From the NCBI GenBank assembly GCA_942492765.1, contig OW818634.1, positions 859,159-895,742 on the forward strand: a DNA stretch of 36,584 nucleotides, read 5' to 3'. Of this stretch, positions 992 through 31,336 are shown piece after piece. Position numbers and translations under genes: made by a program. Each line of letters starts with the position of its first letter. Position 1 is the stretch's first letter. The stretch is from an uncultured bacterium. GTDB taxonomy: Bacteria > Patescibacteriota > Patescibacteriia > Patescibacteriales > UBA12465. The notes under the pieces are model-generated. The model saw nothing but the letters and a program-made list of their open reading frames with translations, ran no database searches and was not told where the DNA came from.

Positions 992-1234
992 ATGAAAGCT
1001 GAAAAAATTTCAAAATCCGTGGTCGACAAGACCCCGAAGAACTTAGCGGCCTGCGCTTGCGCGCATTGCCCTAGTTATAACGATTGCTCCCGAGGAAAAG
1101 AGGAGCTTTTATTTTGTTCGGATGCGATCGGCAAGAGCACTTGCGCTTATAAGATGAACGGCTGCCTCTGCGGCCCCTGTCCAGTGCATCAGGAATACGC
1201 CTTGAAATCTGGTTATTATTGCATCAACGGCTAA
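992..1234 (+). CDS. Small Cys-rich protein, DUF2769-like (putative metal/Fe-S binding)
   Basis: 80 aa with 10 Cys: CxCxxCPSY...LFC...GKSxC...CLCxxCPV...YYC. Confidence 0.7.
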   Translation: MKAEKISKSVVDKTPKNLAACACAHCPSYNDCSRGKEELLFCSDAIGKSTCAYKMNGCLCGPCPVHQEYALKSGYYCING

Positions 1235-1235
1235 T

Positions 1236-2105
1236 ATGAAAACAATAGATAAGGACACCGCTCGCTTTGAAGCGATCCGGAAGAGTACGATCGCAGAAGC
1301 TAAGCGCCTCTTGAAAACTAAGAAAACTATCAAGGCCTTAGGCATTTCCGGTTCTAATCGGGACGAGTTCGATATGGCCGGCGAGAATAGTAACTCTGAG
1401 TTCTTATTGAAAGCCTGTCTGGCGGAATTGAAGCGCTTAGGCGCGGTTACGGAATTATTGCCGTTGCGCAAATATGATATCAAGCCTTGCAAGGCCTGTT
1501 ATTCGACCGCGAATAACCAGTGCCATTTTCCTTGTTCTTGTTATCAGAAGGGAACGCCTCTGGCTGATGATATGAGCAAGCTCATCTACGATAAAGTATT
1601 AGCAGCCGACATCATTATCTTCGCTACTCCGGTCAATAATTTCAAAATATCCTCTCTCATGGCTTTATTCATAGATCGCTGCATCTCTCTGGACGGGAGC
1701 TTAGCGCCGGCTGATCCCAAAGCTAAGAAGAATAAAGAATTAAATAAGAAGCACGCGCAGTTTGTTAGCGACCATTCTGATCCAAAGATTTTTGGCAGCG
1801 GCTTCCTGCGCCGCTTCGTCGGCAAGACCGCCGGCATCATCGTGACCGGCCACGAAGCTGGCGCCAGCCTGACCATTTCTTCGCTATTTATGACTTTGAA
1901 TAATTTCGGCATGGTCTTTCCGGCTTGGAGCACGATGTATGCTATGAATACCATTCTTGATCTGACTGGCGACGATAAGAAGAAGGTCACGGCTCAGCCG
2001 TATGTCGTTGACGCCAAGGACATCGCGAATAATACCTTTATCATGGCTAAGAAATTGAAAGAGCTGTCGAAGGATAAATGGCGCAATGATCCATCGAGAA
2101 ATTAA
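1236..2105 (+). CDS. Flavodoxin-fold NAD(P)H-dependent FMN reductase / iron-sulfur flavoprotein-like protein
   Basis: ALGISGSNR...NS (FMN phosphate loop), IKPCKACYST...CHFPCSC Cys cluster, and ADIIIFATPV..F..SS.M..FIDR. Confidence 0.8.
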   Translation: MKTIDKDTARFEAIRKSTIAEAKRLLKTKKTIKALGISGSNRDEFDMAGENSNSEFLLKACLAELKRLGAVTELLPLRKYDIKPCKACYSTANNQCHFPCSCYQKGTPLADDMSKLIYDKVLAADIIIFATPVNNFKISSLMALFIDRCISLDGSLAPADPKAKKNKELNKKHAQFVSDHSDPKIFGSGFLRRFVGKTAGIIVTGHEAGASLTISSLFMTLNNFGMVFPAWSTMYAMNTILDLTGDDKKKVTAQPYVVDAKDIANNTFIMAKKLKELSKDKWRNDPSRN

Positions 2106-2141
2106 TAAATTTATTTAGTTCATTCTAACTAACCAAACAAT

Positions 2142-2588
2142 ATGAAAAAAATCTTCAGCTTAGCGGCCCTGACCGCCATCGTTCTTGTCAGCGGCGGCTG
2201 CAGTCTGACTAAGACCGCTCCAGTCGATCAGTCCGCTCCAGTCGATCAGACTGTCCCGGTCGATCAGCCGGCGGCTGTCGATTCTGCGCCAGCGGATAAT
2301 TCCGCTGCCGCGTCCGCGCCGGTTTCTTTGCCTGTTGAAGTGCCTCTCGCGGCTAGTGTCGATATCAGCAGTTTTTCTTTTTCGCCCAGCCTCTTGAATA
2401 TCAAGCCGGGAACGACGGTTACCTGGACGAATAGTGATGCGGTTCCGCATACCGTTAAATTTGCGGATTTCCTCTCCGATGCCATGGAAGAAGGCCAGAG
2501 CTTCTCTTATACTTTCAATGATTCCGGCATCTTCGAATATAGCTGCTCTATTCATTCGTCGATGACCGGCAAGATAATCGTCCAATAA
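2142..2588 (+). CDS. Membrane-anchored cupredoxin (type-1 blue copper, amicyanin/plastocyanin-like) lipoprotein
   Basis: Signal peptide ending in SGGC, Pro/Ala-rich stalk, F.P..L.I..G.TVTWTN, and ligands H103, C135, H138, M141. Confidence 0.85.
   Translation: MKKIFSLAALTAIVLVSGGCSLTKTAPVDQSAPVDQTVPVDQPAAVDSAPADNSAAASAPVSLPVEVPLAASVDISSFSFSPSLLNIKPGTTVTWTNSDAVPHTVKFADFLSDAMEEGQSFSYTFNDSGIFEYSCSIHSSMTGKIIVQ
2215..2286 (+). repeat. 18-bp tandem repeat x4 (degenerate) encoding the APVDQS/T stalk of the cupredoxin
   Basis: ccgctccagtcgatcagt / ccgctccagtcgatcaga / ctgtcccggtcgatcagc / cggcggctgtcgattctg. Confidence 0.85.
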
Positions 2589-2589
2589 T

Positions 2590-2814
2590 ATGATCCATAA
2601 ATTCGCTTTGATCCTAGTTTGGGGCCGGCCGCTGTTCGCCTATTTCGGCCTATTGACCTTCTTGCTGATCTTGTCGGCTGCGACTGTCGGCCGCTTGAAT
2701 TTCAAAGGTAACTCGACTATCCCTTTCAAGTGGCATCCGCGCCTGGCCATAACTGCCATAATTATCGGCTCTATCCACATGTTTTTGGCGCTTTCTGTCT
2801 TTTTCGGCTACTAA
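2590..2814 (+). CDS. 74-aa two-TM membrane protein with His49/His63 pair (ferric-reductase-like TM fragment)
   Basis: Two hydrophobic helices; FKWHPRLAITAIIIGSIH. There is a 1-nt gap after the cupredoxin stop. Confidence 0.7.
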   Translation: MIHKFALILVWGRPLFAYFGLLTFLLILSAATVGRLNFKGNSTIPFKWHPRLAITAIIIGSIHMFLALSVFFGY

Positions 2815-2893: not shown

Positions 2894-3283
2894 ATGAGAA
2901 TTTTAATCATTGATGACGACATCAGCGCCGCTACTACCCTCAAGGCCCTCTTGATGAGCCAGGAAAATTTTGATATCGATGTAGTCTATGCCGGCCGCGA
3001 AGGCTTAAATAAGATGATTGCCGAGCCGTCTTACGATCTGCTCATCCTCGATATCATGATGCCTGATTTTAGCGGCATCGAGGTCTGTCGCGCTATGGCC
3101 GCTAATGAGAAGTTGAAGCAGATTCCGGTCATGCTCGCTTCCGCTCTGCCGATCACTTCTAAAGAGCTGGGCGACCTGATGGCTGAATTCAAGGCCTTGA
3201 ATGTCGTCAAAGGCGTTTTAGAAAAGCCTTTCGTCGTTGAAGACCTGCTTACCGAAATCCATCGCATCGTCGATAAGAAATAA
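2894..3283 (+). CDS. Single-domain response regulator (receiver only)
   Basis: MRILIIDDD, LLILDIMMP (phospho-Asp), LASA, EKPF. Confidence 0.9.
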   Translation: MRILIIDDDISAATTLKALLMSQENFDIDVVYAGREGLNKMIAEPSYDLLILDIMMPDFSGIEVCRAMAANEKLKQIPVMLASALPITSKELGDLMAEFKALNVVKGVLEKPFVVEDLLTEIHRIVDKK

Positions 3284-3687
3284 TGCGGACTATGAAGATC
3301 CTTATCGTAGACAACGACGTCAGTACAGTCACTACTCTCAAAGCCTTGCTCTTGAGCCAGGCCTCTTTTGAGATTGATACGGCTTTCGGCGGACAGGAAG
3401 GGCTTGATAAGATGACGGCTCATCCTGATTATGACCTAGTGCTTTTAGATATTATGATGCCGACTGTCAGTGGCATGGACGTCTGTCAGGCCATGATGAA
3501 AAATTATCGTTTGCGGGAGATCCCGGTGCTCCTCATGTCTTCGGCTCTGCCTATCCCTCCGGGAGAATTCCACCAGTCGCTCGAAAGATTCAGCGCCCTG
3601 AGCGTTGTCAAAGGCGTGATTGAAAAGCCTTTCGTCATCGGCGATTTGTTAGCGGAGATAAATAAGACTGCTCGCCGCCCTCTATAA
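3283..3687 (+). CDS. Single-domain response regulator (receiver only), paralog of the upstream gene; start may be 3292
   Basis: MKILIVDND, LVLLDIMMP, LMSSA, EKPF. Confidence 0.9.
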   Translation: MRTMKILIVDNDVSTVTTLKALLLSQASFEIDTAFGGQEGLDKMTAHPDYDLVLLDIMMPTVSGMDVCQAMMKNYRLREIPVLLMSSALPIPPGEFHQSLERFSALSVVKGVIEKPFVIGDLLAEINKTARRPL

Positions 3688-3688
3688 T

Positions 3689-4933
3689 ATGATTTACGAC
3701 GTAGCGGTAATCGGCGGCGGCGCTTCCGGACTGATGGCTGCCGGCCGAGCCGGCGAACAGGGAGCCAAGGTTGTCCTGCTCGAGAAGAACGGGTCTGTCG
3801 GTCTCAAGCTGCTTATGACCGGCGGTACGCGTTGCAATCTGACTAATAATATTGCGGATTCTAAGATATTGGCGACTAATTTCGGCTCAGCGGGCCGTTT
3901 TTTAATTTCCGCTTTTTCCCGTTTCGGTCCGAAGGAAGTGATCGCTTTTTTCAATGGCCGCGGCGTAGCCACGAAGATTGAGAATAATAATCGTGTCTTT
4001 CCGGTGAGCGATAACGGCCGGGAAGTCTTGAAAGTTTTAGTCGATTACGCGCAGGCGGCCGGCGTCATGATTATGACTAACGCGGTCGTCAAGAACATAA
4101 TTCTCGAAAAAGGGAAGATAGCCGAGCTTGTCTTATCCGACGGGAAGAAGATAAAAGCTATAAATTATATCATCGCGACTGGCGGGCGCTCGTATCCCGT
4201 CACTGGCTCGAGCGGCGACGCTTATGACTGGCTGCGCCGTTTGGGGCATAATATAATAACGCCGTCTCCGGCTCTAGTTTCGATCCTAGTCGAGAATGAT
4301 TTTATCGCTGCGCTCGAAGGACTGAGCCGAGAAGAAGTGAGGCTGACCTTATGGCAAGACAAGAAAAAGATCGCGAGCGAGAACGGCGATATCCTTTTTA
4401 TGGCCGCTGGTCTTAGCGGCCCGGCCGCTTTGAATCTTAGCCGTTTCATCAGGCTGCCTTTGAGCGATAATCTGAGCTTGTCAATAGATTTTTTTCCTGA
4501 ATTCAAGATCGAAAGCCTAGATGAAGAGCTAAGGAAGATATTTTCCGGCAGCAATAAGGCGGTCAGGAATAGCTTGGCCGGAATCATCCCGCCCAAGCTT
4601 ATTCCCGTGATCGGCTCGTTAGCGCCGCTAGATATGGATAAGCTGGCTAATTCCGTCTCTAAGATAGAGCGCCAGCAGCTCGGCGGCTTGCTGAAGGATT
4701 TTCGTCTCGGCCTCAGAGGCCTAGGCGGATATGACAAGGCTATGATCACTGCGGGCGGCTTAGATCTGAAAGAAGTCGATCCCAAGACGCTGCGGTCGAA
4801 AATCATCCCTAATCTTTTCGTGGCCGGAGAAGTGCTTGATATCGCCGGACCGACCGGCGGTTTTAATCTCCAGGCTTGCTGGAGTACGGGCCGCATCGCC
4901 GGTGAAGCAGCGGCCCGGGTTAAAGCGGATTGA
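3689..4933 (+). CDS. HI0933/BaiN(YhiN)-family NAD(P)/FAD-dependent oxidoreductase
   Basis: VIGGGASGLMAA, KLLMTGGTRCNLTN, ATGGRSYPVTGSSGD, TAGG, AGEVLD..GPTGGFNLQ..WSTG. Confidence 0.92.
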   Translation: MIYDVAVIGGGASGLMAAGRAGEQGAKVVLLEKNGSVGLKLLMTGGTRCNLTNNIADSKILATNFGSAGRFLISAFSRFGPKEVIAFFNGRGVATKIENNNRVFPVSDNGREVLKVLVDYAQAAGVMIMTNAVVKNIILEKGKIAELVLSDGKKIKAINYIIATGGRSYPVTGSSGDAYDWLRRLGHNIITPSPALVSILVENDFIAALEGLSREEVRLTLWQDKKKIASENGDILFMAAGLSGPAALNLSRFIRLPLSDNLSLSIDFFPEFKIESLDEELRKIFSGSNKAVRNSLAGIIPPKLIPVIGSLAPLDMDKLANSVSKIERQQLGGLLKDFRLGLRGLGGYDKAMITAGGLDLKEVDPKTLRSKIIPNLFVAGEVLDIAGPTGGFNLQACWSTGRIAGEAAARVKAD

Positions 4934-12049: not shown

Positions 12050-12940
12050 ATGACGGACAATGTGATCATAGTTAATCCGGACAAGCTAGGGAAGATAAAA
12101 GAGAATATTAAGCAAGCCGGAGCGGAATCTGTCCATATATTATCTGATTTTGACCGTACCCTGACTTATCATTCTCAGGCCGGCCGCAAGAATTCCGCTC
12201 TGATTGCTGTCTTGCAGGACGGAGACTACTTGCCTCAGGAATATCGTAATCAGGTAGCCGCTTTATATCAGAAATATTATCCGATTGAATATGATCCCGA
12301 TATCCCTCTGCCGGAGAAAAAAGCGGCTATGGTCGAATGGTGGAATGAAGCTTTCGGATTATTGATAGCTTTCGGCCTAACCGAAGATATTGTCAGGCGC
12401 GCTGTAGCCGATAGCCGGATCAAGCTTAGGGACGGGGTAGAGGCTTGGCTGGATACGATCAAGGCTCTCGGCATTCCTCTGGTCATCTTTTCCGCATCGG
12501 CTTTTGGCAAGGAAGCGATCGATGTCTTCTTGGATAATCTTCAGCGCCATCTGCCTGATATTCATATCATGGCCAATTCTTTCATCTGGAACGAGGCCGG
12601 GAAGGCGGTCGGCATCCGTGAGCCAATCATCCATTCCTATAATAAAGACGAGACTTTGATTCAGGATTTTCCTTTCTTCCCGGAAATAAAAAATCGCCGC
12701 AATGTTATCTTGTTCGGCGATTCTTTAGGCGACGTCGGCATGGCCGAAGGCTTCGAGCACGATAATCTTCTAAAAATCGGCTTCCTGAATGAAGGAGCGG
12801 ATAATAATCTCCCTAGCTTCAAGCAGGCTTACGATGTCGTCATCATGGGCGACGCTTCTTTCGATTTCGTCAATTATTTATTTTCAGATCTTTTTCCGGC
12901 GCATCAGGAGAGTGTTGAGCACGACGCTGACCGAGGATAA
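12050..12940 (+). CDS. HAD-superfamily pyrimidine 5'-nucleotidase (UMPH-1/cN-III, NT5C3-like)
   Basis: SDFDRTLT (motif I), KxxxMVEWW, IPLVIFSA, ANSF, IIHSYNK, NVILFGDSLGDVGM, LKIGFLN, YDVVIMGD. Confidence 0.8.
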   Translation: MTDNVIIVNPDKLGKIKENIKQAGAESVHILSDFDRTLTYHSQAGRKNSALIAVLQDGDYLPQEYRNQVAALYQKYYPIEYDPDIPLPEKKAAMVEWWNEAFGLLIAFGLTEDIVRRAVADSRIKLRDGVEAWLDTIKALGIPLVIFSASAFGKEAIDVFLDNLQRHLPDIHIMANSFIWNEAGKAVGIREPIIHSYNKDETLIQDFPFFPEIKNRRNVILFGDSLGDVGMAEGFEHDNLLKIGFLNEGADNNLPSFKQAYDVVIMGDASFDFVNYLFSDLFPAHQESVEHDADRG

Positions 12941-15229
12941 GGACATAGCTCCGGCCGCGACGATCGGGCTGAGCAATAATCCATAGGCCGGATAAAAAGC
13001 GCCGCCAGCTAAGGGCAGGGCGACGATATTATAGAAGAAGGCCCAGAAGAGATTTTGCTTTATCTTCTTGATAGTGAGACGGGAGATCATGATTGCCTTG
13101 ATTATTTTGGAGAGATCGCCGTGAAGCACGGTGATGTCAGCCGACTCGATTGCGACGTCTGATCCGGTCGCCATCGCGATGCCGATATCAGAGGCAGTCA
13201 GCGCGACCGCATCGTTCACTCCATCTCCGACCATGGCGACCGCTAGGCCGCCTTTTTTTAATTCTTTAACCTTATCAGCTTTCTCTAGCGGAGAAATTTC
13301 GGCGATGACTTCATCGATGCCGGCCAGGTCGGCAATATGGCGGGCGGCTTCATAACGGTCGCCGCTCAGCATCACTGTCTTTAGGCCGAGGCGCTTCAAT
13401 TCTGAAATCGCGGCCGCGGCGCCTGGCTTGATGGTATCGGCGACAGCGATGATGCCTAAGATATTCTTTCCCTCGCTTAGGATCATAGAGGTCTGTCCTT
13501 CTTTTTCTAAGGCTGTAATCTTGTCCATCGGCAGGTCAGCGCCTAATGCCCGCAGCATCTTCACGTTGCCGAGATGATATTTCTGGCCGTCGATCAGGCC
13601 GCTGACGCCCTGGCCGCTGATAGCGGAGAATTCAGACGTCTCTAATAAAGGAATATTCTCTTGTCTAGCATGAGCTATGACTGCCTGCGCGAGCGGATGT
13701 TCGGAATTATTCTCTAGGGAAGCGGCGAGCGCGATAATCTTGGCAGGGGAGTTATTCTGATTAAGAGTGATGATTTCTGTGACTGCCGGCTGTCCGCTAG
13801 TGATAGTGCCGGTCTTATCAAGCGCGATGATTTTGACGCGGCCTAATCTTTCTAGGGCATCAGCATTCTTGATGAGCAGTCCGTTCTTGCTGGCTAGACC
13901 GAGGCCGACGATTATTCCGGTCGGCGTCGCGAGACCGAGGGCGCAAGGGCAGGCGATAGCAAGGACGCTGATGAAAGCGGTGAGACCTAAGCTGACTGAT
14001 TCGGCCCAGCCCAAGTAGCGCGGTCCGATTATTAGCCAGGCGCCCAAGGTCAGGACAGATAAAGCAAGGACTATCGGCACGAAGATGCCGGAAACTTCGT
14101 CAGCTAATTTTTGGATAGGCGCTTTGGAATTCTGGGCATCAGAGATCGCCTTGATTATATTAGCGATGACCGTGTCGGCTCCGACTTTATTTATTTTGAC
14201 TTTCAGGACGCCTTGCTTGTTCAAGGTCGAACCGATGACTTCATCGCCGTTACTCTTATCTACAGGCAAGGATTCTCCGGTGATGAGCGCTTCGTCTACG
14301 GCTGACAGGCCGCTGACGACGATGCCGTCAGCCGGAATCTTCATGCCCGGTTTGACGATGACGATATCCCCGACCCTTAATTCGCTGATCGGAGTTTCTT
14401 TCTCTTGCCCGTCGATTTCCACTAGCGCCGTTTTGCTCTGCAGGCTCATCAGCTTCTCGATCGTGTCATTAGTCCTGAGCTTGGCTTTGTTCTCTAGATA
14501 TTTTCCTAAGTAGACGAGCGTAATGACGACGATAGTGACATCGAAGAAATAATTTTCGCCTAATCCGAGCGCCTGTCTCAGAGCTGGGAAAAGATATATC
14601 AGGGTCGAATAGAAATACGCGGTGCCGGTGCCGATCCCGATGAGGGTATCCATATTAGCGCGGCCGTAGCGGAAGAAGCGGCCGGCGCCTTTTAAGAAAT
14701 CGCGGCCGAGCCAGAAGATGATGACGGTCGCAGTAATGAAGACGAGCGGCATGAATATCGTTCCCGGAATCAGTTCAGCTGGCGTAAATTTGAAATAACT
14801 GGCGGCGAGCGACCAGAAGACCGCTATCAGGATTAAGCTCATGAGCGGCAAGGCGATCTTTAATTTATTCTTTTGGCTCTCTAGCTCCGCCAGCTTAGCG
14901 GCTCTCATCGTCCGCAGATCGCCTCCGGCCGCCAGGCCGTGGTCCATATGATCATGATCCATGTTCATATGATCCATGTCCGCTTGGCCCGCGGGTTTTG
15001 CAGAAGATAAGCTATCTGGAAATTTTAAGCCATAGCCTAATTTTTCCAGATTCTTATTGGCCGAAGCCGGAGAGAAAGACTCGGCCTCGAATTCCAAGTT
15101 AGCCTCTTCGGTCAACGGGTTGACTTGGATGTTTTTTACTCCAGGCTCTTTCTTGAGCTCTTTCTCAACGATCTTGGCGCAGGAGGCGCAATGCAGGCCG
15201 CTGACGCCGATGCGAATTTTGTTTTCCAT
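12884..15229 (-). CDS. copA: Copper-translocating P1B-type ATPase
   Basis: HMA GLHCASC, His/Met linker, ANMDTL, TGES, ACPCALGLATP, DKTGT, SEHPLA, GDGVND, YN..ALP, MSLSSVSV. Confidence 0.95.
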   Translation of the reverse strand: MENKIRIGVSGLHCASCAKIVEKELKKEPGVKNIQVNPLTEEANLEFEAESFSPASANKNLEKLGYGLKFPDSLSSAKPAGQADMDHMNMDHDHMDHGLAAGGDLRTMRAAKLAELESQKNKLKIALPLMSLILIAVFWSLAASYFKFTPAELIPGTIFMPLVFITATVIIFWLGRDFLKGAGRFFRYGRANMDTLIGIGTGTAYFYSTLIYLFPALRQALGLGENYFFDVTIVVITLVYLGKYLENKAKLRTNDTIEKLMSLQSKTALVEIDGQEKETPISELRVGDIVIVKPGMKIPADGIVVSGLSAVDEALITGESLPVDKSNGDEVIGSTLNKQGVLKVKINKVGADTVIANIIKAISDAQNSKAPIQKLADEVSGIFVPIVLALSVLTLGAWLIIGPRYLGWAESVSLGLTAFISVLAIACPCALGLATPTGIIVGLGLASKNGLLIKNADALERLGRVKIIALDKTGTITSGQPAVTEIITLNQNNSPAKIIALAASLENNSEHPLAQAVIAHARQENIPLLETSEFSAISGQGVSGLIDGQKYHLGNVKMLRALGADLPMDKITALEKEGQTSMILSEGKNILGIIAVADTIKPGAAAAISELKRLGLKTVMLSGDRYEAARHIADLAGIDEVIAEISPLEKADKVKELKKGGLAVAMVGDGVNDAVALTASDIGIAMATGSDVAIESADITVLHGDLSKIIKAIMISRLTIKKIKQNLFWAFFYNIVALPLAGGAFYPAYGLLLSPIVAAGAMSLSSVSVVLNTLLMRRKKI

Positions 15230-15257
15230 ATGTTTGGCTTATTATTTTAAGCTTTAT

Positions 15258-16598
15258 TTATTTTTCAACGACCTGGAAGCTGCCGGTGTACATGCCCATA
15301 GAGCAGGAGAAGGGGATAGATCCGGTTTTAGTGGGCGTGAATTCAATGATATTCTCGCCGCGCTCCAATTGTTTTTGGATCCTGAGAGACGGGACGATCA
15401 AGGCGCTGGCGCAGGAATATGGCGCTTCGGCCGTAATTATCCAGCGGACCGGCTTGTCTTTGATGATCGTGAACTTATTCGGTAAATAGCCGCGGTTATT
15501 TTCCGTCATCCTGATGATTTGGATATCGTTATTTTCCCGATCAGTATTAGCGGCGGAATTATTTTTTTCTGCTTGTTCTTTTTTGACGCCTGTTTCTGCT
15601 GTGCCGGAAATCCTGAATAGCTTATAGCCGTTATTGAGATTGAATAGGCCGAAGATGACGATGATAATGCCAGCGGCTTTGAAGAAAGAAACATTTTTTC
15701 GGCCGCTTAATAACGAAGCTAGGCCGCCTATGCCCAGGAGTCCGGGCGCGGTGCCGAGCGCGAATAACCCCATGACGAGGCCGCCTTTCAGGAAACTTCC
15801 AGAATTCAGAGCATATAATTGCATCGCCTGCGTGAAGCCGCAGGGCATGAAGAAGGTTAGGGCGCCGAGGGCGAGCGGGTTATCTATCTTTAAGATTCTG
15901 CCCCAGCTCTTAGGCAAGGAAAAATCTAGGCGATTGATGAAAGGGAATATATCTAGCAGCTTTAATCCGAGAATCAGGATTATCAGGCCGACAAAGATGG
16001 TGATCAGACTGTTGGCGAGGGCAGAGAGCTTGAAGACGCCGCCGATGACGCCCAATATTCCTCCGAGCGCGAAGAAGCCGAGAACACGGCCGGCGTTGAA
16101 TAATAGATGGGGCCGGAATTTCTGGCGCGCGCTAGCTTCAGGATGGCTTTTGGCATAATTAGCCGCCAGGCCCATGACTAAGCCGCCGACCAGCGCTAGA
16201 CAGGTTGAAGCGCCGGCAATCAAGCCGACGATGACAGCCAGAGGCCAAGAAAAATCTCGGTTAAGCCAGCTGCTCGGATCTAGATTTATCTGGTTGAAGA
16301 CCCAAAAGATGATCAGGACGGAACTGACGAGCGTCACGCCTTGGCTGAAGCTGGCGCCGCGCTTGCGAGTATCATCAGGAAGCTTCTTTTCGCCCAATCC
16401 ATAGCCGGCCTCTTTCAAGCGATGCTCAATCTCTTTCAGGCTCGGCTCTTCGCCTTCATAAGATATTTCCGCTTCTTCCGCGCTGAGATCGACAGAGACA
16501 TCTTTGACGCCCCTGATTTCCTTAAGAGCGTCTTCAGTCAGGATGACGCAGGCCTTGCAGTGCAGCCCGGAGACTGGCACGCTTATCTTCTTGAGCAT
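15258..16598 (-). CDS. HMA domain + DsbD/CcdA(TauE-like) transmembrane domain + C-terminal cupredoxin-like domain fusion
   Basis: GLHCKAC; TM Cys pair in ASTCLALVGG and FMPCGFTQ; C-terminal YSCA and FSCSMGMYTG. Confidence 0.85.
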   Translation of the reverse strand: MLKKISVPVSGLHCKACVILTEDALKEIRGVKDVSVDLSAEEAEISYEGEEPSLKEIEHRLKEAGYGLGEKKLPDDTRKRGASFSQGVTLVSSVLIIFWVFNQINLDPSSWLNRDFSWPLAVIVGLIAGASTCLALVGGLVMGLAANYAKSHPEASARQKFRPHLLFNAGRVLGFFALGGILGVIGGVFKLSALANSLITIFVGLIILILGLKLLDIFPFINRLDFSLPKSWGRILKIDNPLALGALTFFMPCGFTQAMQLYALNSGSFLKGGLVMGLFALGTAPGLLGIGGLASLLSGRKNVSFFKAAGIIIVIFGLFNLNNGYKLFRISGTAETGVKKEQAEKNNSAANTDRENNDIQIIRMTENNRGYLPNKFTIIKDKPVRWIITAEAPYSCASALIVPSLRIQKQLERGENIIEFTPTKTGSIPFSCSMGMYTGSFQVVEK

Positions 16599-16624
16599 AT
16601 GTTTATGATTATTTGTTAAGCCGA

Positions 16625-16897
16625 TTATTTATTCGCTAGCTTGTTGACTTTCAAGATCTCGTCGACCATGCGCTGTTTCAGCTTCTCGTTCTTAGAGGCC
16701 ATGGCGTTCTTGAAGCAGCTATTGAGATGGCCGTCTAAAAGCATCTGGTGCGCAGACTTGAGCAGGCCGATGACGGCCAGATTCTGCTGCATGATATCGA
16801 TGCAATAATCGCCTTTCTCAGTCATAGTAATCAGCTTCTCGGTTAAGCTCTTCGCCTTCTTGAAATTTATTAGAATCTTCTTTCTGTCTTGAGACAT
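16625..16897 (-). CDS. csoR: CsoR/RcnR family metal-sensing transcriptional repressor
   Basis: YCIDIMQQ..AV..LL......L.GHLNSC (Cys-His-Cys ligand set); first gene of the copA operon. Confidence 0.88.
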   Translation of the reverse strand: MSQDRKKILINFKKAKSLTEKLITMTEKGDYCIDIMQQNLAVIGLLKSAHQMLLDGHLNSCFKNAMASKNEKLKQRMVDEILKVNKLANK

Positions 16898-17048: not shown

Positions 17049-17113
17049 GAGGATTGCTTGATTTATGCGAGCATTGTTTGATTTATTTAATTTTGGCTCG
17101 TAATCTGCCTATT

Positions 17114-17863
17114 ATGACATTATATTTATATATCTTCGGCAGCGTTCTGCTGGTTTCTTTCCTGTCTCTCTTCGGAGTCTTTTTTTTGTCGTTCTCGCCG
17201 CGTTTCATGGAGAAGCTGACCTTATTCCTCGTCAGCCTTTCAGCCGGAACCTTGCTGGGCGACAGCTTCTTGCATCTTTTGCCCGAAGCGGCGGCTGATA
17301 ATGGCGCCAGCTTACGGATGTGGCTCTGGCTGATAATCGGATTAGTCTCTTTCTTCGTGCTCGAGAAGATAGTTCATTGGCGGCATTGCCATATCCAGAC
17401 CTGTCCGACGCATCCGCATCACCTAGGCATCATGAATCTTGTCGGCGATTGCCTGCATAATTTTTTTGACGGCGTCATCATCGCCGGCTCGTTCTTGGTC
17501 AGCCTGCCTCTGGGCCTGACTACCCTGATAGCGGTCATCGCTCATGAGATACCGCAGGAGATCGGTGATTTCGGAGTTTTGCTCTATGCGGGCTATTCGC
17601 GTCGCCGCGCCTTGTTCCTTAATTTCGTCACGGCGCTCACTGCCGTTTTTGGAGCGGTCATCGCGATAGTTCTTGGCGCGCGCATCAATAATTTTTCTGA
17701 TCTGATAATCCCGTTCACGGCCGGCGGCTTCATCTATATCGCGACCGCCGATTTGATTCCGGAATTGAAGAAAGAAACGGCCGCCCGTAAGTCCTTATAT
17801 CAATTGATCAGCATCATCGTCGGTATCGGCATCATGCTGGCCTTGAAAGTCATCTTCGAATAA
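17114..17863 (+). CDS. ZIP (ZupT-like) family divalent metal transporter; start reassigned from 17054 to ATG 17114
   Basis: LLGDSFLHLLPEA, His-rich loop HWRHCHIQTCPTHPHH, GDCLHNFFDG, HEIPQEIGDF. Confidence 0.92.
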   Translation: MTLYLYIFGSVLLVSFLSLFGVFFLSFSPRFMEKLTLFLVSLSAGTLLGDSFLHLLPEAAADNGASLRMWLWLIIGLVSFFVLEKIVHWRHCHIQTCPTHPHHLGIMNLVGDCLHNFFDGVIIAGSFLVSLPLGLTTLIAVIAHEIPQEIGDFGVLLYAGYSRRRALFLNFVTALTAVFGAVIAIVLGARINNFSDLIIPFTAGGFIYIATADLIPELKKETAARKSLYQLISIIVGIGIMLALKVIFE

Positions 17864-17881
17864 ATAATAAGAATCTTAAAT

Positions 17882-19789
17882 ATGAAAAAAAAGCAAATAT
17901 CAGTGATCGCTCTATTAATCTCCTTATCCCTCGCTCTTAGCGCTTGCGGCTCTAAGGTAGAAGCGCCGATATCAGAACCGACGCCAGTTGCCGTCAAAGG
18001 CCAGACCGTCGGCAACAGCCTGAGCGTCAGGCAGGGATTGTCTTATCCGGGAATGGTCGTAGCTGATAGCGAGGCCACGATAGTCGCCAAGGCTAGCGGC
18101 AATTTGACTGGAGCCAAATTCAAGGTCGGCGATACCGTCAGCCTCGGCCAGGAGCTTGCGAAGATTGACGATGTTAATTCTCCTGCTTTCAATGCTTCTA
18201 ATTTTAATACTAACCAGATCAAGCAGGCGAAGAATGCGGCGGCGAGCGCTGAAGCTGCCTATAGCTTAGCCAAAGACAGCTACAATAGCTTATTAGTTTC
18301 TTCGGTCAAGGATTTGCGCAGCGCCGAGATCGCCCGTGATCAGGCGGCTAAAGGCCAGAGCAATCTTGATATTACGACGGAAGAAAGTTTGAAGAGCGCG
18401 GAGCTCGCTTATGAAACGGCTAAGATAGCGACCGAGCAAGCTAGTTCGACTTTAGTTAATAGAGAAAAATTAGCCGTTCAGAGCGCTAAAGACACTCTGA
18501 CAAACGCTGATCTGACAGCTAGTTCAGTCGTCTCGACCGCCGGCGCCATTATCACTAATATCAATAACATCACGGCGTTCGATATCAACAATACCGTCTC
18601 CATCGATTATCGTTCCAATCTCGGCGCCCTTGATTCCAGCACTTACGATGTCGCTAAACAGGCTTATCAAGCCGCGAAGGACGCTTACGCCGCCTATCAG
18701 AAGAAGAAGCCGGCTAGCGTTTCCGAAGATGTCGATAACGTCATTATCGTCGCCGACGCAGTCAAGTCCTTGGTCGATGTTACCAAAGGCTTATTGGATA
18801 AGAGCATCTCTTCTTCCGCTTTGCCCGCTAGTTCCGTTTCCGGAGTTTCTTTGTCCGGATTGCAGTCGGCTGTTTCCGGTTATCAATCCCAGATCAACGC
18901 CGCCGCCGCTCAGATAAATGGGATGAAGCAGGCGCTAGTGAACGTCAATTTGAATAATACGACTTTGCTTGATAGCTTGCGCCAAGCCTATCAACTCGCC
19001 TCCCAGCAAGAAGCGATTGCCAAGCAGAATTTATCTAATTTGAAATCTGGCAATACTAGCCAGCAGAATCAGGCCGGGTATGTCGCTAACTTGGCGCAGA
19101 ATCAGTATGATAACGCGAAAGTGAAGATCGAATCTCAGATCAACGCCGCTAAGACTCAAGTCGAGACGGCAGAATTGCAATATAATAACGCGCTAGTCGC
19201 TCTGCAGAGCCTTTATGACGCCCACTCCGTTATCGCTCCGATAAACGGCACAGTCACTAAAGTCTTTGTCGCTGATGGCCAAGCAGTCGCTCAAGGCCAA
19301 GCGGTCGCGACTATTTCTCAAACGCAGAATATCAAGGTCCAATTCTTTATCGAAGCTGATAACTTGAAAGATATCATTTTGGGATTGCCAGTAGCAGTCG
19401 TCGATGATAATAATGTCTCACATCCAGGGCTCGTGGCCGCAGTTTCGCCGCAAGCGGATCTTATCACTCGCCGGTTCTTGGTCGAGGTGAAATTAGAAGA
19501 TTCGACCGGATTATTCCTGGGTACGGTCGTGACGGTTAAGCTTGAATTGGTCAAGACGGCGACGACGGCCGGCTCTATCATCCTGCCTTTAGCCGCTATC
19601 ACTGTCGGACAGAACGGAAATTATATCTTTATTGCGGAAGACGGGAGGGCGAAGAAGGCTAGCGTCGATATCCAAGAAGTCTTGGGAGAGTCGGCGCGCA
19701 TCAAAGTCGACCTGCCAGCGGAGACGATGATAATTACGGAAGGCAACCGTCTTTTAGAAGAAGGACAGAGCATAGTTTTCAATCAATAA
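17882..19789 (+). CDS. RND efflux periplasmic adaptor lipoprotein with an extended helical hairpin
   Basis: Lipobox LSAC, F.VGD.V..GQ.LA.ID, long Ala/Gln/Ser coiled coil, IAPINGTV..V.V..GQ.V..GQ, TRRF.VEV, IILP..AI. Confidence 0.9.
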   Translation: MKKKQISVIALLISLSLALSACGSKVEAPISEPTPVAVKGQTVGNSLSVRQGLSYPGMVVADSEATIVAKASGNLTGAKFKVGDTVSLGQELAKIDDVNSPAFNASNFNTNQIKQAKNAAASAEAAYSLAKDSYNSLLVSSVKDLRSAEIARDQAAKGQSNLDITTEESLKSAELAYETAKIATEQASSTLVNREKLAVQSAKDTLTNADLTASSVVSTAGAIITNINNITAFDINNTVSIDYRSNLGALDSSTYDVAKQAYQAAKDAYAAYQKKKPASVSEDVDNVIIVADAVKSLVDVTKGLLDKSISSSALPASSVSGVSLSGLQSAVSGYQSQINAAAAQINGMKQALVNVNLNNTTLLDSLRQAYQLASQQEAIAKQNLSNLKSGNTSQQNQAGYVANLAQNQYDNAKVKIESQINAAKTQVETAELQYNNALVALQSLYDAHSVIAPINGTVTKVFVADGQAVAQGQAVATISQTQNIKVQFFIEADNLKDIILGLPVAVVDDNNVSHPGLVAAVSPQADLITRRFLVEVKLEDSTGLFLGTVVTVKLELVKTATTAGSIILPLAAITVGQNGNYIFIAEDGRAKKASVDIQEVLGESARIKVDLPAETMIITEGNRLLEEGQSIVFNQ

Positions 19790-19811
19790 GCCAAGCAATC
19801 AATAAGCTCGT

Positions 19812-22800
19812 ATGGATATAAATATCAATCATAAGAATGATGGACTGAAAATGGGCGTCGCCGTCGATATTGATGAGCGCGCCGCCGCGGAATATTCCGG
19901 AGTCAAGACTTCGGATCATCTTTATCTGGAGAAATTGGAATTCAATCCGGAGCTGCGCAAGAGCTGGTTGAATTTTTTCATCGTCAATTTCCGCGTCGTC
20001 ATCCTGCTCATCATGCTCCTGACTGGGCTGGGCATCTATGCTTTCAGCGTCTTGCCGCGCGAATCGAATCCAGAAGTGAAAATTCCGATCGCTGTCGTAA
20101 TGACGATGTATCCTGGAGCTTCTCCGGCTGATATTGAGGAGCTAGTCTCTAAGAAGATCGAGACGGGAATCGCTGGAGTGAAGAATGTCGATAAGATAAC
20201 TTCTCAGTCATCCAACTCCATCTCCATGATCACGGTCGAATTCGATGCCAAGGCCGATCTCAATGATTCTATCAGAAGCCTGCGCGATGCGGTCTCGAAT
20301 GCCAAGTCGAAATTGCCGGCCGATGCCAATGATCCGATCGTGAAAGAGATATCCATGGATGATTCGCCGATAATGGTTATGTCCTTATCCGGGCCTTATG
20401 ACGGCTTTGTCCTGCGCGAAGCTGGCGATACGATCAAGGATGAACTGGAAAAGATTCCGGGCGTACGCGAAGTGAGTATTTCCGGCGGCGACGAGCGGGA
20501 ATTCACTGTCGAATATGATCCGCAGAAATTGGCTTTATATAACCTCTCCGCTATCCAGGCTAACGCCAAGATCCAGGGCGCTAACCTAGCTATTCCGGCC
20601 GGAACCTTTGAGGGCCAGGAATATTCTTATCCGGTGCGCGCTGACGGCCGCTTCTTTACCGCGTCTGTTCTGGCTGATACCCCGATCATCCATACTGATT
20701 CCGGCGCCATCATCTATCTTAAGGATATCGCGACCGTCAAAGACGCTTCGATCAAGAAGACCGTTTTCTCTCGCTTGTCGACCGGCGGCCAGAATGCTTC
20801 CAGCAACGTGACTCTGCAGATCATCAAGAAGACCGGCGGCAATGTCATCGAGACAGCCGGCAAAGTCAGGGAGACTTTTGATGCTGAGCTTAAGAAGATG
20901 CCGAGCGGCTTGCATTATGACGTGACTGTCGATATGTCCGAGGAAATCAACACCAGCTTCAATCAATTGACGCATGATTTCTTATTGACGATTATTCTCG
21001 TCTTCTTGATCCTGTTCCTGATTGTCGGCTTCAAGGAGGCGCTCGTCGCCGGCTTAGCCGTGCCGCTAGTATTTTTCGCGACCTTCGGCGTTATGCTCTG
21101 GACCGGCATCAGCCTTAATTTCTTATCCCTGTTCTCGCTTATCCTCGCGCTCGGCTTATTAGTCGATGACGCGATCGTGGTCGTTTCCGCGACCAAGCAA
21201 TATTTGCGCACCGGAAAATTTACGCCGGAAGAGGCGGTCTTGTTAGTCCTGAATGATTTCAAGGTCGTGCTGTTAACGACGACCTTGACGACGGTCTGGG
21301 CTTTCTTGCCGCTCCTCATGTCCACCGGCATCATGGGAGAATTCATAAAATCAATTCCGATCACGGTCTCGGTCACTCTGATTTCTTCGCTTGTCATCGC
21401 CCTCATCATCAATCATCCGCTCGCGGCCGTCCTTGAGCGCATCCGCCTGACGCGGAAATTATTCTCTTTCTTTTTTGCCGGCATCCTGATCCTAGCCATA
21501 GTCTTAGCGGTTTCAGCTGGCTTAGTCGGAATATTATTAGCCTTGATCCTTTTAGGCGTAGACGTCGCGTTGGCTTCCTGGTACATGAAGAAAGGGAAGG
21601 CCATGCTTATCGTCAATAGCGAATTGGTAGCGCGCGAATGGGCGAGCGATGAGCTTATCAAGCAGAAGCTGCGCGAACAAGGCAGCCATGATAATGATAA
21701 TTTTGGCAACCGCTTGATGCACGGAATCATCCGTTTCGACGTCTTTCTCCCTATCTATGAAAAATATCTGCGCCGCCTGATAACGACTAAGAAAGCGCGC
21801 TTCAAGACTTTGGCTTTTGTCGCCGGGCTGTTTATAGTCGCTGTCGCTTTGCCGGTGACCGGAATAGTTCAGAGCGAATTTTTTCCAGCCTCGGATTCGA
21901 CCCAGATAAATATTAGCCTAGAAGGTCCGATCGGACTCAATTTGGAAGAGACTGATAAGATCGCCCGCCGCGTCGAAGAGCGTTTATATAAATATCCGGA
22001 AATCGAGAACTTCACGACTATCGTCGGCCAGGGCGGATCTTCCGATAGCCTAGTCGCCGGAGGCAATTCTTCCCACTTAGCTTCTTTCACTTTAAAACTG
22101 ACGCCGACCGATGATCGCGATATCAAAGCCTATGAATTAGCTGATAAGATCAATGCTGATATCGCTGATATCAAGGAAGCGGTCATCAAGGCCGCTGCTC
22201 CTTCCGGCGGACCGCCTTCCGGCGCCGCCTTCCAGGCGAATATCGCTGGCGACGATCTCCAGGAGCTTGATAGAGTAGCTAAAGAATTGGAAATTCCTTT
22301 GAAGTCCCTGCCTGATGTCTCGAAGACTAATATTTCTCTGAAGGACTCCCCGGCTGATTATACTTTTACTCTTTCGCCGGCCCGCTTAGAGCTTTATGAC
22401 CTTAGCGCCGCTTATGTCGGCTCGGCTTTGCGCTTGGCTATCACCGGCACCGAAGTGACGACCGTCATCACTGGCGGCAAGGAGATCAAGGTGCTAGCCC
22501 GCTTCGCGCCTGATCGGATTCCTGACTTGGAAGCGATTCAGAACTTACAGATCTTAAATGCCAAGAATCAGCCCGTTTTCTTGAAAGACGTGGCGACTAT
22601 CGAGCTGAAGCCGTCAGTCGCTACTATCACTCGCATCAATCAGCGCCGAACCGTTCTCTTGACCGCGACCCTGAAAGGCGGCGCTAATTCGACGCTGGTC
22701 GTTTCTGAATTCCAGAAGAAGATAAAGGATTATAAGTTTCCGTCCGGCTATGAGATCACTTACGGCGGCGAGAGCGAACAGAATACCGAATCGGTCATGT

Positions 22801-23282
22801 CAATCCTGCGCGCGATGGTCGTCGCCTTCTTGCTTATCATTTCGACGCTCATCATCCAGTTCAATTCCTTCAAGAAAGCTGGCATCGTGCTAGTGACTAT
22901 CCCGCTCGCCCTCATCGGCGTTTTCTTCGGCCTAGCCATTTCTCGCTTGAACCTGTCTTTCCCGGGTCTTATCGGCATCCTGGCTCTCTGCGGCATCGTC
23001 GTCAAGAATGCGATTATCCTGATGGATAAGATAAATCTCAATCTTAATAGCGGCATCGAGTTCAACGACGCGATCGTCGACGCTGGCAAGTCGCGCTTAG
23101 AAGCGATTTTCATCACTTCGATCTGCACGATTCTCGGTATCTTGCCCATTACTCTTTCTAATGAGATGTGGCGCGCTCTCGGCGGCGCCGTCATCTTCGG
23201 CCTGATGCTCTCATCTTTCCTGACGCTTTTCATCGTTCCGGTCCTATTCAAGTCCTTCATCAAGCCGAAGAGGCATTTCTAG
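19812..23282 (+). CDS. RND efflux transporter permease (AcrB/AcrD/AcrF-like family)
   Basis: LPRE..PEV.IP, YPGASP.DIE..V...IE, GLLVDDAIVV (TM4 Asp pair), GIVVKNAII (TM10 Lys), RLEAIFITS, LTLFIVPV. Confidence 0.95.
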   Translation: MDININHKNDGLKMGVAVDIDERAAAEYSGVKTSDHLYLEKLEFNPELRKSWLNFFIVNFRVVILLIMLLTGLGIYAFSVLPRESNPEVKIPIAVVMTMYPGASPADIEELVSKKIETGIAGVKNVDKITSQSSNSISMITVEFDAKADLNDSIRSLRDAVSNAKSKLPADANDPIVKEISMDDSPIMVMSLSGPYDGFVLREAGDTIKDELEKIPGVREVSISGGDEREFTVEYDPQKLALYNLSAIQANAKIQGANLAIPAGTFEGQEYSYPVRADGRFFTASVLADTPIIHTDSGAIIYLKDIATVKDASIKKTVFSRLSTGGQNASSNVTLQIIKKTGGNVIETAGKVRETFDAELKKMPSGLHYDVTVDMSEEINTSFNQLTHDFLLTIILVFLILFLIVGFKEALVAGLAVPLVFFATFGVMLWTGISLNFLSLFSLILALGLLVDDAIVVVSATKQYLRTGKFTPEEAVLLVLNDFKVVLLTTTLTTVWAFLPLLMSTGIMGEFIKSIPITVSVTLISSLVIALIINHPLAAVLERIRLTRKLFSFFFAGILILAIVLAVSAGLVGILLALILLGVDVALASWYMKKGKAMLIVNSELVAREWASDELIKQKLREQGSHDNDNFGNRLMHGIIRFDVFLPIYEKYLRRLITTKKARFKTLAFVAGLFIVAVALPVTGIVQSEFFPASDSTQINISLEGPIGLNLEETDKIARRVEERLYKYPEIENFTTIVGQGGSSDSLVAGGNSSHLASFTLKLTPTDDRDIKAYELADKINADIADIKEAVIKAAAPSGGPPSGAAFQANIAGDDLQELDRVAKELEIPLKSLPDVSKTNISLKDSPADYTFTLSPARLELYDLSAAYVGSALRLAITGTEVTTVITGGKEIKVLARFAPDRIPDLEAIQNLQILNAKNQPVFLKDVATIELKPSVATITRINQRRTVLLTATLKGGANSTLVVSEFQKKIKDYKFPSGYEITYGGESEQNTESVMSILRAMVVAFLLIISTLIIQFNSFKKAGIVLVTIPLALIGVFFGLAISRLNLSFPGLIGILALCGIVVKNAIILMDKINLNLNSGIEFNDAIVDAGKSRLEAIFITSICTILGILPITLSNEMWRALGGAVIFGLMLSSFLTLFIVPVLFKSFIKPKRHF

Positions 23283-31198: not shown

Positions 31199-31336
31199 GG
31201 GGTATTGACAACTTTCTTTTCCACAGATAAGAGTTAATTTTAGTTTAAAAATACCTATTTCATGCTATAATATCTATAGGTATTTTATTTTATATATTTT
31301 TTAAAAAATTATTTAATTAATAACTTCATCAAACTT

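Follow-up and report, generated by a model that had tools for sequence, protein, structure and literature searches.

A four-gene cluster in an uncultured patescibacterium

The window, by which we mean the whole stretch of DNA analyzed (36,584 nt; contig OW818634.1 of an uncultured patescibacterium of the UBA12465 lineage), contains four + strand open reading frames (ORFs) that are all co-oriented and separated by intergenic gaps of 1, 36 and 1 nt. This arrangement had been described in a first-pass annotation of the same DNA and is borne out by the ORF coordinates. The genes encode a Cys-rich DUF2769 protein, a flavoprotein, a cupredoxin lipoprotein and a membrane protein of 74 amino acids (aa) from an unnamed family, for which the name TM74 was coined here. 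On balance we favor the view that the four genes constitute a small electron path across the membrane, in which a TM74 homodimer would hold two hemes, with the flavoprotein as donor and the cupredoxin as outlet. The genes and their flanking signals are as follows.

948-976, + strand: sigma-70-like promoter match (TTTACA-17-TAAAAT plus TG), 16 nt ahead of the DUF2769 gene
992-1234, + strand: DUF2769 protein gene, 80 aa, 10 Cys, no signal peptide
1236-2105, + strand: FMN_red flavoprotein gene, 289 aa, flavodoxin fold
2142-2588, + strand: cupredoxin lipoprotein gene, 148 aa, exported, type-1 (blue) copper
2590-2814, + strand: TM74 gene, 74 aa, two membrane helices
2801-2822, + strand: terminator-like hairpin, 9-pair stem over the stop codon of the last gene, then a T-rich tail

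The promoter-like site and the hairpin flank the four-gene set at either end, and both are consensus matches only. The former agrees with the consensus at 10/12 positions, and the region holds 9 such sites compared with 3.1 expected from shuffles. Hairpins of the second kind are no commoner than in shuffles. Curated Pfam thresholds are exceeded by all three annotated genes (DUF2769, flavoprotein and cupredoxin). With these thresholds passed, a His pair kept in TM74 and the gene set recurring in many unrelated contigs, the locus is above chance.

The DUF2769 protein, flavoprotein and cupredoxin

The first gene product matches PF10967 (1.4e-15, 58 bits against a gathering threshold of 22.8). Its ten Cys lie at positions C21, 23, 26, 32, 42, 51, 58, 60, 63 and 77, as expected of the 10-Cys DUF2769-like protein that had been proposed, and nine Cys are invariant across 13 homologues. 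A search of the PDB gave no relative, and DUF2769 receives only passing mentions in the literature. The protein is a putative cytoplasmic metal or Fe-S carrier that would partner the flavin mononucleotide (FMN) domain of the second protein.

The second product matches PF03358 FMN_red (4.7e-18, 65.6 bits against a gathering threshold of 24) and also PF02525 (7.4e-08). It contains the motif C85-x2-C88-x7-C96-x3-C100-x-C102. All five motif Cys, together with C149, are invariant in 7 homologues (56-65% identity), and the identity between family members of Patescibacteria and Methanosarcinales is likewise 56-65%. The flavodoxin-fold protein with a CxxC-x7-C-x3-CxC cluster of the first-pass annotation was therefore correctly recognized. 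The protein is a putative FMN/Fe-S electron-input module.

The iron-sulfur flavoproteins (Isf) of methanogens, which belong to the NADPH-dependent FMN reductase family, share with this protein the FMN_red fold and a compact cluster of Cys that follows the second strand. Both are found in anaerobes, and a link to oxidant stress is plausible. The Isf motif is a compact C-x2-C-x2-C-x4-7-C that binds a 4Fe-4S cluster, whereas the spacing here is C-x2-C-x7-C-x3-C-x-C. Unlike Isf, the window protein is 289 aa long, has N- and C-terminal extensions and is genetically tied to DUF2769, TM74 and cupredoxin. A PDB search returned distant relatives only, and none at E<=0.1 was named iron-sulfur flavoprotein. 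Classical Isf identity was rejected on the basis of the Cys motif and the PDB search. Two homologues (L015:5492-6475 and L017:1254-2234; L numbers denote loci throughout) carry an extra N-terminal CxxC...CxxC extension resembling a zinc ribbon.

The third product matches PF00127 Copper-bind (2.5e-11, 44.3 bits against a gathering threshold of 21.2) and PF13473 Cupredoxin_1 (7.6e-07). Its signal peptide ends in a lipobox-like LVSGGC (Cys20), and the protein has a stalk rich in Pro, Ala, Val and Asp. The copper ligands H103, C135, H138 and M141 are kept in 72, 65, 66 and 65 of 72 related cupredoxins, respectively, in agreement with the stalked lipoprotein with an intact copper site that had been claimed. 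The C-x2-H-x2-M loop and the ligands align to amicyanin structures (1sfd, 1.6e-13), so the loop is amicyanin-like as previously noted. The protein scored 54.7 bits with the NCBIfam amicyanin equivalog TIGR02657, below the 110.2 cut-off. From its sequence we classify it as amicyanin-like in the loop and not as an amicyanin orthologue. It has the cupredoxin fold, the His/Cys/His/Met ligands and the short loop of amicyanin/plastocyanin-type copper proteins. Unlike amicyanin, it is lipid-anchored on a long stalk, paired with TM74 and without methylamine dehydrogenase genes nearby. Among Methanomicrobiales, cupredoxins encoded upstream of TM74 (L036, L037, L041 and L042) carry Asp where the copper-ligand Cys would be, in the motif D-M-x-H. 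As judged from this substitution, they cannot form classical type-1 sites.

TM74 is a conserved two-helix family with a His pair

The TM74 protein of the window matched no Pfam or NCBIfam family. An AlphaFold2 (AF2) model with a predicted local distance difference test (pLDDT) score of 98.3 places TM1 at residues 15-38 and TM2 at 48-72. TM1 carries G20-x13-G34 and TM2 carries H49-x13-H63, the same 14-residue offset. The predicted helix 48-72 thus contains both His that had been assigned to a single helix of a two-helix protein.

A word-indexed search recovered 17 close homologues, nearly all of 74 aa and from Patescibacteria, in which both His are invariant. The full profile search yielded 361 clusters (50% identity level, E<=1e-3), almost all of 70-75 aa. 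Conservation of H49 and H63 had been set beforehand as a check, and it was examined in 149 cluster representatives. H49 is present in 147/149 and H63 in 145/149, while the mean column identity of the family is 44%. The other leading positions are G20 (148), G12 (135) and P14 (133), followed by A53 (127), A31 (114) and G40 (112). Position 34 is G in 87, A in 23 and P in 19 representatives (129 together).

The interhelix loop (residues 35-51; consensus LNxKGxxxIPFKWHxR) is conserved more strongly than any other stretch and contains most of the positive charges. Because of the positive-inside rule, we infer that this loop is cytoplasmic, which would place H49 near the inner face of the membrane and H63 toward the outer face.

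Source databases name the members 'hypothetical protein', with the exception of one JGI record, 'cytochrome b561'. When a set of 5.8 billion proteins was searched with the profile, only TM74 family members, nearly all 'hypothetical', were among the matches listed, and no multidomain fusions were among the best 120. The literature searched holds no description of this small family. One member, P0124 (P numbers denote TM74 proteins), looks frameshifted.

Similarity of TM74 to heme-binding domains

Because the first-pass annotation had likened the His spacing to that of the ferric reductase/NOX2 helix, TM74 was compared with the ferric reductase domain (FRD) superfamily. 27/98 diverse TM74 members match PF01794 Ferric_reduct, the best at 1.4e-5 and 25.6 bits. 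In the matches inspected, TM74 residues ~19-72 align with profile positions ~1-60 of 121 in one register. The matched segment is the opening helix, loop and bis-His helix of the domain, and H49 and H63 fall at profile positions ~37 and 51. As a control the same 98 sequences were reversed, which retains composition, hydrophobicity and His spacing. Only 1/98 then matched Ferric_reduct (0.041), and no family was matched more than 4 times. The analogy is thus independently supported. The families matched next most often by the 98 members were VKOR (7), Ni_hydr_CYTB (5) and DUF4405 (3), and a tandem fusion, P0018, matched Cytochrom_B561 (0.0069); the last three are families of di-heme b proteins. 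Residues 47-161 of E. coli MsrQ correspond to PF01794 profile positions 1-120, and H63 aligns with MsrQ H91 (hhalign to MsrQ itself was not significant). As measured by these profiles, the similarity of TM74 to the first half of FRD is weak and sub-threshold, but specific.

FRD proteins (NOX, FRE, STEAP, MsrQ/YedZ; PF01794) share with TM74 a His-x13-His helix that follows a cytoplasmic basic loop (presumed to be cytoplasmic in TM74). They also have a cytoplasmic flavoprotein donor, as proposed here for the TM74 locus, and in L028 an FNR-like protein of the NOX/FRE type is encoded beside TM74. MsrQ serves the extracytoplasmic MsrP, much as TM74 is proposed to serve an extracytoplasmic redox protein. 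FRD differs in having six helices, two of them His-bearing, whereas the second His-bearing helix is absent from the 74-aa, two-helix TM74. Because it has one His pair per chain, TM74 must dimerize to form an FRD-like bundle. Its partner is a cupredoxin, and flavin binding in TM74 itself is not indicated. TM74 is also widespread in archaea (DPANN and methanogens), unlike FRD, which is judged to have been anciently absent there and has been suggested to originate from cytochrome b (PMC3591440).

Di-heme b cytochromes (bc1/b6f and the anchors of fumarate reductase and formate dehydrogenase) offer a second comparison. In these four-helix proteins, helices 1 and 3 bear heme-accommodating Gly and helices 2 and 4 bear His, at matching depths (PMC5600118). 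TM74 has a comparable arrangement, and both pairs show the 14-residue offset in it as in the b cytochromes. The same Gly pattern on the helix preceding the His helix is present in TM74 (G20 in 148/149). Cytochrome b6 is reported to have been investigated as assembled from helical segments (PMC5730185). The bc1/b6f complexes reduce a plastocyanin-type cupredoxin by way of other subunits, and TM74 is likewise paired with a cupredoxin. Unlike them, the TM74 system has no quinone site, Rieske protein or cytochrome c1/f, and its bundle would be a homodimer of a 74-aa hairpin, one hairpin used twice. Clear sequence homology to the four-helix b cytochromes was not apparent; the only recurrent matches to this group were Ni_hydr_CYTB (5/98) and Cytochrom_B561. 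In cytochrome b559 (PsbE/PsbF), compared here by description, the heme lies at the interface of tiny subunits that each donate a His, as proposed for TM74. The b559 subunits differ in having one helix and one His each and in binding one heme. Together these comparisons suggest that TM74 works like, and is possibly distantly related to, half of an FRD/cytochrome b bundle, without being a PF01794 member.

Tandem fusions of TM74

At least 10 TM74 clusters are tandem fusions of 128-133 aa, which supports the earlier idea of a homodimer. In such proteins the second repeat would provide the second His-bearing helix that a single TM74 chain lacks. All 10 fused proteins keep G-x13-G/A in both repeats. 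All four His are retained in 2/10. In the remaining 8/10 (P0169, P0171, P0173, P0205, P0215, P0217, P0257 and P0141) repeat 1 has Met at i+14 from its first His, while repeat 2 has His. Heme iron classically has His and Met as its axial ligands, and both residues bind Cu(I) too. Such an asymmetric replacement of His by Met is possible only once the halves are fused. On an archaeal contig of 164 kb, a cupredoxin gene is followed 20 nt later by the gene for fusion P0018. P0141 occurs on many contigs, with a SnoaL-like gene upstream and not a cupredoxin. An apparent cupredoxin-TM74 fusion (L043:4332-5219, from a long-read metagenome-assembled genome labelled Actinomycetota) was rejected as a probable frameshift, the copper loop being garbled before the junction.

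Gene neighborhoods and exchange of partners

To survey TM74 loci, sequence patterns were scanned against one genome for each GTDB species, which gave 55 loci. The patterns were taken from alignment A1 and favor close relatives, so that the spread observed is a lower bound. The loci span many Patescibacteria classes, DPANN archaea (Iainarchaeota, Woesearchaeota, Nanoarchaeota, Aenigmatarchaeota and Altiarchaeota) and methanogens (Methanoregula, other Methanomicrobiales and Methanosarcinales). TM74 is not limited to Patescibacteria, the group within which the first-pass annotation had considered it, since DPANN archaea and methanogens have it too.

Neighbors were counted at the 34 loci with >=1.5 kb on both sides of TM74. 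Cupredoxin is present at 26, DUF2769 at 7 and the flavoprotein at 5. Among 54 same-strand pairs the gap between cupredoxin and TM74 has a median of 2 nt and is <=15 nt in 50/54. This tight spacing indicates translational coupling, and the two proteins probably form a stoichiometric complex. The proposed four-gene unit therefore stands in part: the cupredoxin and TM74 pair is conserved, while the DUF2769/flavoprotein pair is optional, accompanying ~15-20% of TM74 loci.

A metagenome scan anchored on the flavoprotein found 323 relatives, of which 80 were kept (56-80% identical to the window protein) and 36 loci had adequate flanks. DUF2769 is present in 23/36, TM74 or cupredoxin within 2.5 kb in 21/36 (58%) and all four genes in 11/36. 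At least six gene orders were seen. With CUP for cupredoxin and FLAV for flavoprotein, they include CUP>DUF2769>FLAV>TM74, CUP>TM74>DUF2769>FLAV, DUF2769>FLAV>CUP>TM74 (that of the window), DUF2769>FLAV>TM74, CUP>FLAV>TM74 and divergent arrangements. In L031 (Methanosarcinales; 61% identical) FLAV overlaps TM74. The genes thus co-occur in many unrelated contigs of bacteria and archaea, a point on which the first-pass annotation had asked for a check. Because adjacency survives repeated rearrangement and the divide between bacteria and archaea, there is good evidence that the coupling of flavoprotein/DUF2769 to TM74/cupredoxin is functional, and it is not obligatory. Four loci (L081, L082, L112 and L113) have a cupredoxin gene directly before the flavoprotein gene and no TM74 within 4 kb.

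The partners of TM74 are exchanged on both sides of the membrane. In L040 (Woesearchaeota) and L056 a lipoprotein cytochrome b5 (PF00173, ~1e-21; HPGG motif and second His) replaces the cupredoxin, and in L052 the partner is a CuA-type (COX2-like) cupredoxin. The b5-type partners suggest heme handling in at least some of these organisms. In L028 the stop codon of a gene for an FNR-like FAD/NAD(P)-binding protein overlaps the TM74 start; NOX and FRE carry this type of dehydrogenase fused to their heme domain. L027 has Gluconate_2-dh3 and GMC oxidoreductase genes directly downstream of TM74. In three further loci (L006:6233-7039, L020:1896-3374 and L059:960-2435) DUF2769 is fused N-terminally to a Glu_synthase FMN domain directly after TM74; L020 holds a free DUF2769 protein besides the fused form. 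Interchange of the outer carrier and the inner flavoprotein is what a transmembrane electron conduit predicts and what a copper-specific chaperone does not.

The gene counts bear on an alternative in which two modules share only regulation. DUF2769 and the flavoprotein would then be a cytoplasmic reductase for oxidant or metal stress, on the model of iron-sulfur flavoproteins, which reduce O2 or H2O2, and cupredoxin and TM74 would act separately at the surface with no electrons passing between the pairs. In keeping with this idea, 15/36 flavoprotein loci have neither TM74 nor cupredoxin within 2.5 kb, 29/34 TM74 loci have no flavoprotein nearby, and in the window the 36-nt gap falls between the two pairs. 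In L005, a locus syntenic with the window, cupredoxin and TM74 occur without the DUF2769/flavoprotein pair. Stress genes are also found close by: an Fe/Mn superoxide dismutase (SOD) gene adjoins cupredoxin in L032 and L047 and is in the vicinity of the cluster in L098/99 and L140. In L056, TM74 is followed by genes for rubrerythrin and desulfoferrodoxin. Separate modules would not be expected, however, to stay adjacent through at least six orders, including the interleaved CUP>DUF2769>FLAV>TM74 and FLAV>TM74 in which the stop and start codons overlap. Nor would other cytoplasmic flavoproteins be expected beside TM74, such as the FNR-like protein of L028 and the DUF2769-Glu_synthase proteins of L006, L020 and L059. 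We regard two independent modules as unlikely.

Proposed electron path

In the electron path that we favor, two TM74 chains would form a four-helix bundle ligating two b-type hemes, with H49/H49' binding the one near the cytoplasmic face and H63/H63' the one closer to the outer face. The basic loop 35-51 would face the cytoplasm and dock the FMN/Fe-S flavoprotein donor, and the Cys-rich DUF2769 protein would likely serve as an Fe-S intermediary. Electrons would pass from NAD(P)H or ferredoxin through FMN, Fe-S, the inner heme and the outer heme to the external type-1 copper. Beyond copper, candidate acceptors include O2 or reactive oxygen species, Cu(II)/Fe(III) and the surface of a partner cell. 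Outward flow from FMN/Fe-S to type-1 copper is thermodynamically natural, given typical potentials. The heme would need to be scavenged because the host lineages make none. More tentatively, we propose that TM74 is a 'half cytochrome b' hairpin that homodimerizes around two scavenged hemes and feeds the surface cupredoxin of Patescibacteria, DPANN and cytochrome-free methanogens.

Several results weigh against this path. No acceptor for the cupredoxin emerged from the recurrent neighbors, and 29/34 TM74 loci have no flavoprotein nearby to act as donor. No TM74 member reaches the PF01794 gathering score (25.6 compared with 28 bits), and the window TM74 itself has no PF01794 match at E<=1. The family profile searched against the PDB at E<=10 gave chance matches only, with no FRD, NOX, STEAP or cytochrome b, and the best FRD-matching member, P0063, found nothing when searched alone against PDB sequences. 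The hhalign comparison of the family with single E. coli MsrQ or YodB was not significant; MsrQ is a poor comparator because it lacks the first His. Foldseek found no PDB match below E=6 for the TM74 monomer model, a null result that is uninformative because the model is a bare helical hairpin. For the fused dimer P0018, AF2 run on the single sequence gave a pLDDT of 58.5, too low for a fold search. His and Met are also copper ligands, and operons with copper ATPase and HMA-DsbD-cupredoxin genes recur beside the cluster. Methanomicrobiales are known to be cytochrome-free. Patescibacteria and DPANN are without heme biosynthesis genes (10.1101/2021.01.11.426183). Overall, the electron-transfer interpretation given by the first-pass annotation is partly supported.

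The same lack of heme synthesis in the host lineages (10.1101/2021.01.11.426183) would suit a TM74 that is a cofactor-free anchor or assembly partner, with His serving in folding, pH sensing or binding of a non-heme metal and no electrons crossing. The cupredoxin has its own lipid anchor, hence a structural partner is conceivable, and the Methanomicrobiales partners have Asp for the copper-ligand Cys. A polar His pair in a membrane helix, at exactly i/i+14 in 145-147/149 and with Met as the sole substitute, is nevertheless hard to explain structurally. An anchor would also leave the similarity to half of FRD and the cytoplasmic flavoprotein neighbors unexplained. We consider this role very unlikely.

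Copper, stress and surface genes

The remainder of the window contains further genes for metal handling.

12884-15229, - strand: Cu P1B-type ATPase (Pfam), in a copper operon 10 kb from the cluster
15258-16598, - strand: HMA-DsbD_2-cupredoxin-like membrane protein of 446 aa (Pfam), C-terminal domain without type-1 His ligands
16625-16897, - strand: CsoR-type metal-sensing repressor (Pfam), in the same copper operon (12884-16897)
17054-23282, + strand: ZIP metal transporter, then a CusB-like membrane-fusion protein and a 1156-aa resistance-nodulation-division (RND) pump with an HMA-like insertion

By its gene content the window appears to be a metal-homeostasis island composed of the copper operon and the ZIP/CusBA-like RND genes. 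The copper operon is possibly linked to the four-gene cluster, and its HMA-DsbD_2-cupredoxin-like fusion protein is a possible second transmembrane redox or metal device. In L057, L135 and L140 an HMA-DsbD_2-cupredoxin-like protein and a CPC-motif ATPase directly adjoin the cluster. A group of 'CopA' neighbors (14 loci) proved to be a mix of copper P1B and P2-type cation pumps, with the copper type at ~6 loci. These neighbors suggest that the cluster operates under copper supply or stress and under exposure to oxidants. In view of the copper operon and SOD neighbors, Cu/Fe reduction or oxidant defense may be alternative roles of the cluster.

These genes also invite the explanation that TM74 handles copper, its His and Met binding or conducting the metal so as to metallate the cupredoxin or aid resistance with a CopA-type pump. 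The csoR, HMA-DsbD_2-cupredoxin-like and copA operon 10 kb away, the HMA-DsbD_2 and ATPase genes adjoining the cluster in L057, L135 and L140 and the CPC-motif ATPases near ~6 loci all fit such a role. Replacement of His by Met in fused TM74 also fits Cu(I) ligation, and the cupredoxin has a weak NCBIfam CopI match (0.048). Some of the 'ATPase neighbors', however, are P2-type, non-copper pumps, and a copper-specific chaperone does not explain the HPGG cytochrome b5 lipoproteins (L040 and L056) or the flavin dehydrogenases (L027 and L028). The similarity of TM74 is to b-cytochrome families, with CopD, CopC and Ctr outside the 25 most frequently matched families. G-x13-G combined with H-x13-H is the heme-packing pattern of four-helix b cytochromes (PMC5600118). 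A copper-handling TM74 therefore seems improbable to us.

Directly after the cluster, at 2894-4933 (+ strand), lie two tandem stand-alone response-regulator receivers and then an HI0933-like flavoprotein. This receiver/receiver/HI0933-like trio is syntenic in L005, and at 8 loci receiver genes occur close to the cluster. A eukaryote-type pyrimidine 5'-nucleotidase of the UMPH-1 family (4.2e-63) is encoded at 12050-12940 (+ strand); a protein encoded near the TM74 gene of L056 (L056:2013-2969) resembles this type of nucleotidase by eye only. Two surface proteins of 1556 and 689 aa, encoded at 26528-33406 (+ strand), have BspA-type leucine-rich repeats and a terminal peptidoglycan-binding domain, and the 1556-aa protein also has atrophied Ig domains. 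Their domains make them candidate host-attachment proteins of an episymbiont.

Implications for Patescibacteria and DPANN

The half-size TM74 family, common in DPANN and methanogens, is absent from Pfam, NCBIfam and the literature searched. A large part of microbial diversity falls within Patescibacteria and DPANN. Both have been described as lacking electron-transport chains (PMC7507113), yet many of them carry a plastocyanin-like protein. A 2025 survey of Patescibacteria found a plastocyanin-like protein without complex III and postulated an unidentified, non-classical electron supplier (PMC12931201). TM74 is a concrete, cloneable candidate for that supplier.

If the proposed path is correct, supposedly fermentative, heme-free organisms run a minimal outward electron path. 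It would provide an extracytoplasmic electron outlet, with a bearing on oxygen tolerance, copper and iron reduction and redox exchange with hosts. If TM74 binds heme, these symbionts must import it from hosts or surroundings. It would also follow that the FRD/cytochrome b fold can be built from a homodimer of 74 residues, which bears on the evolution of membrane cytochromes and on the design of minimal wires, and TM74 would be a candidate model for a two-helix ancestor of the FRD and cytochrome b domains.

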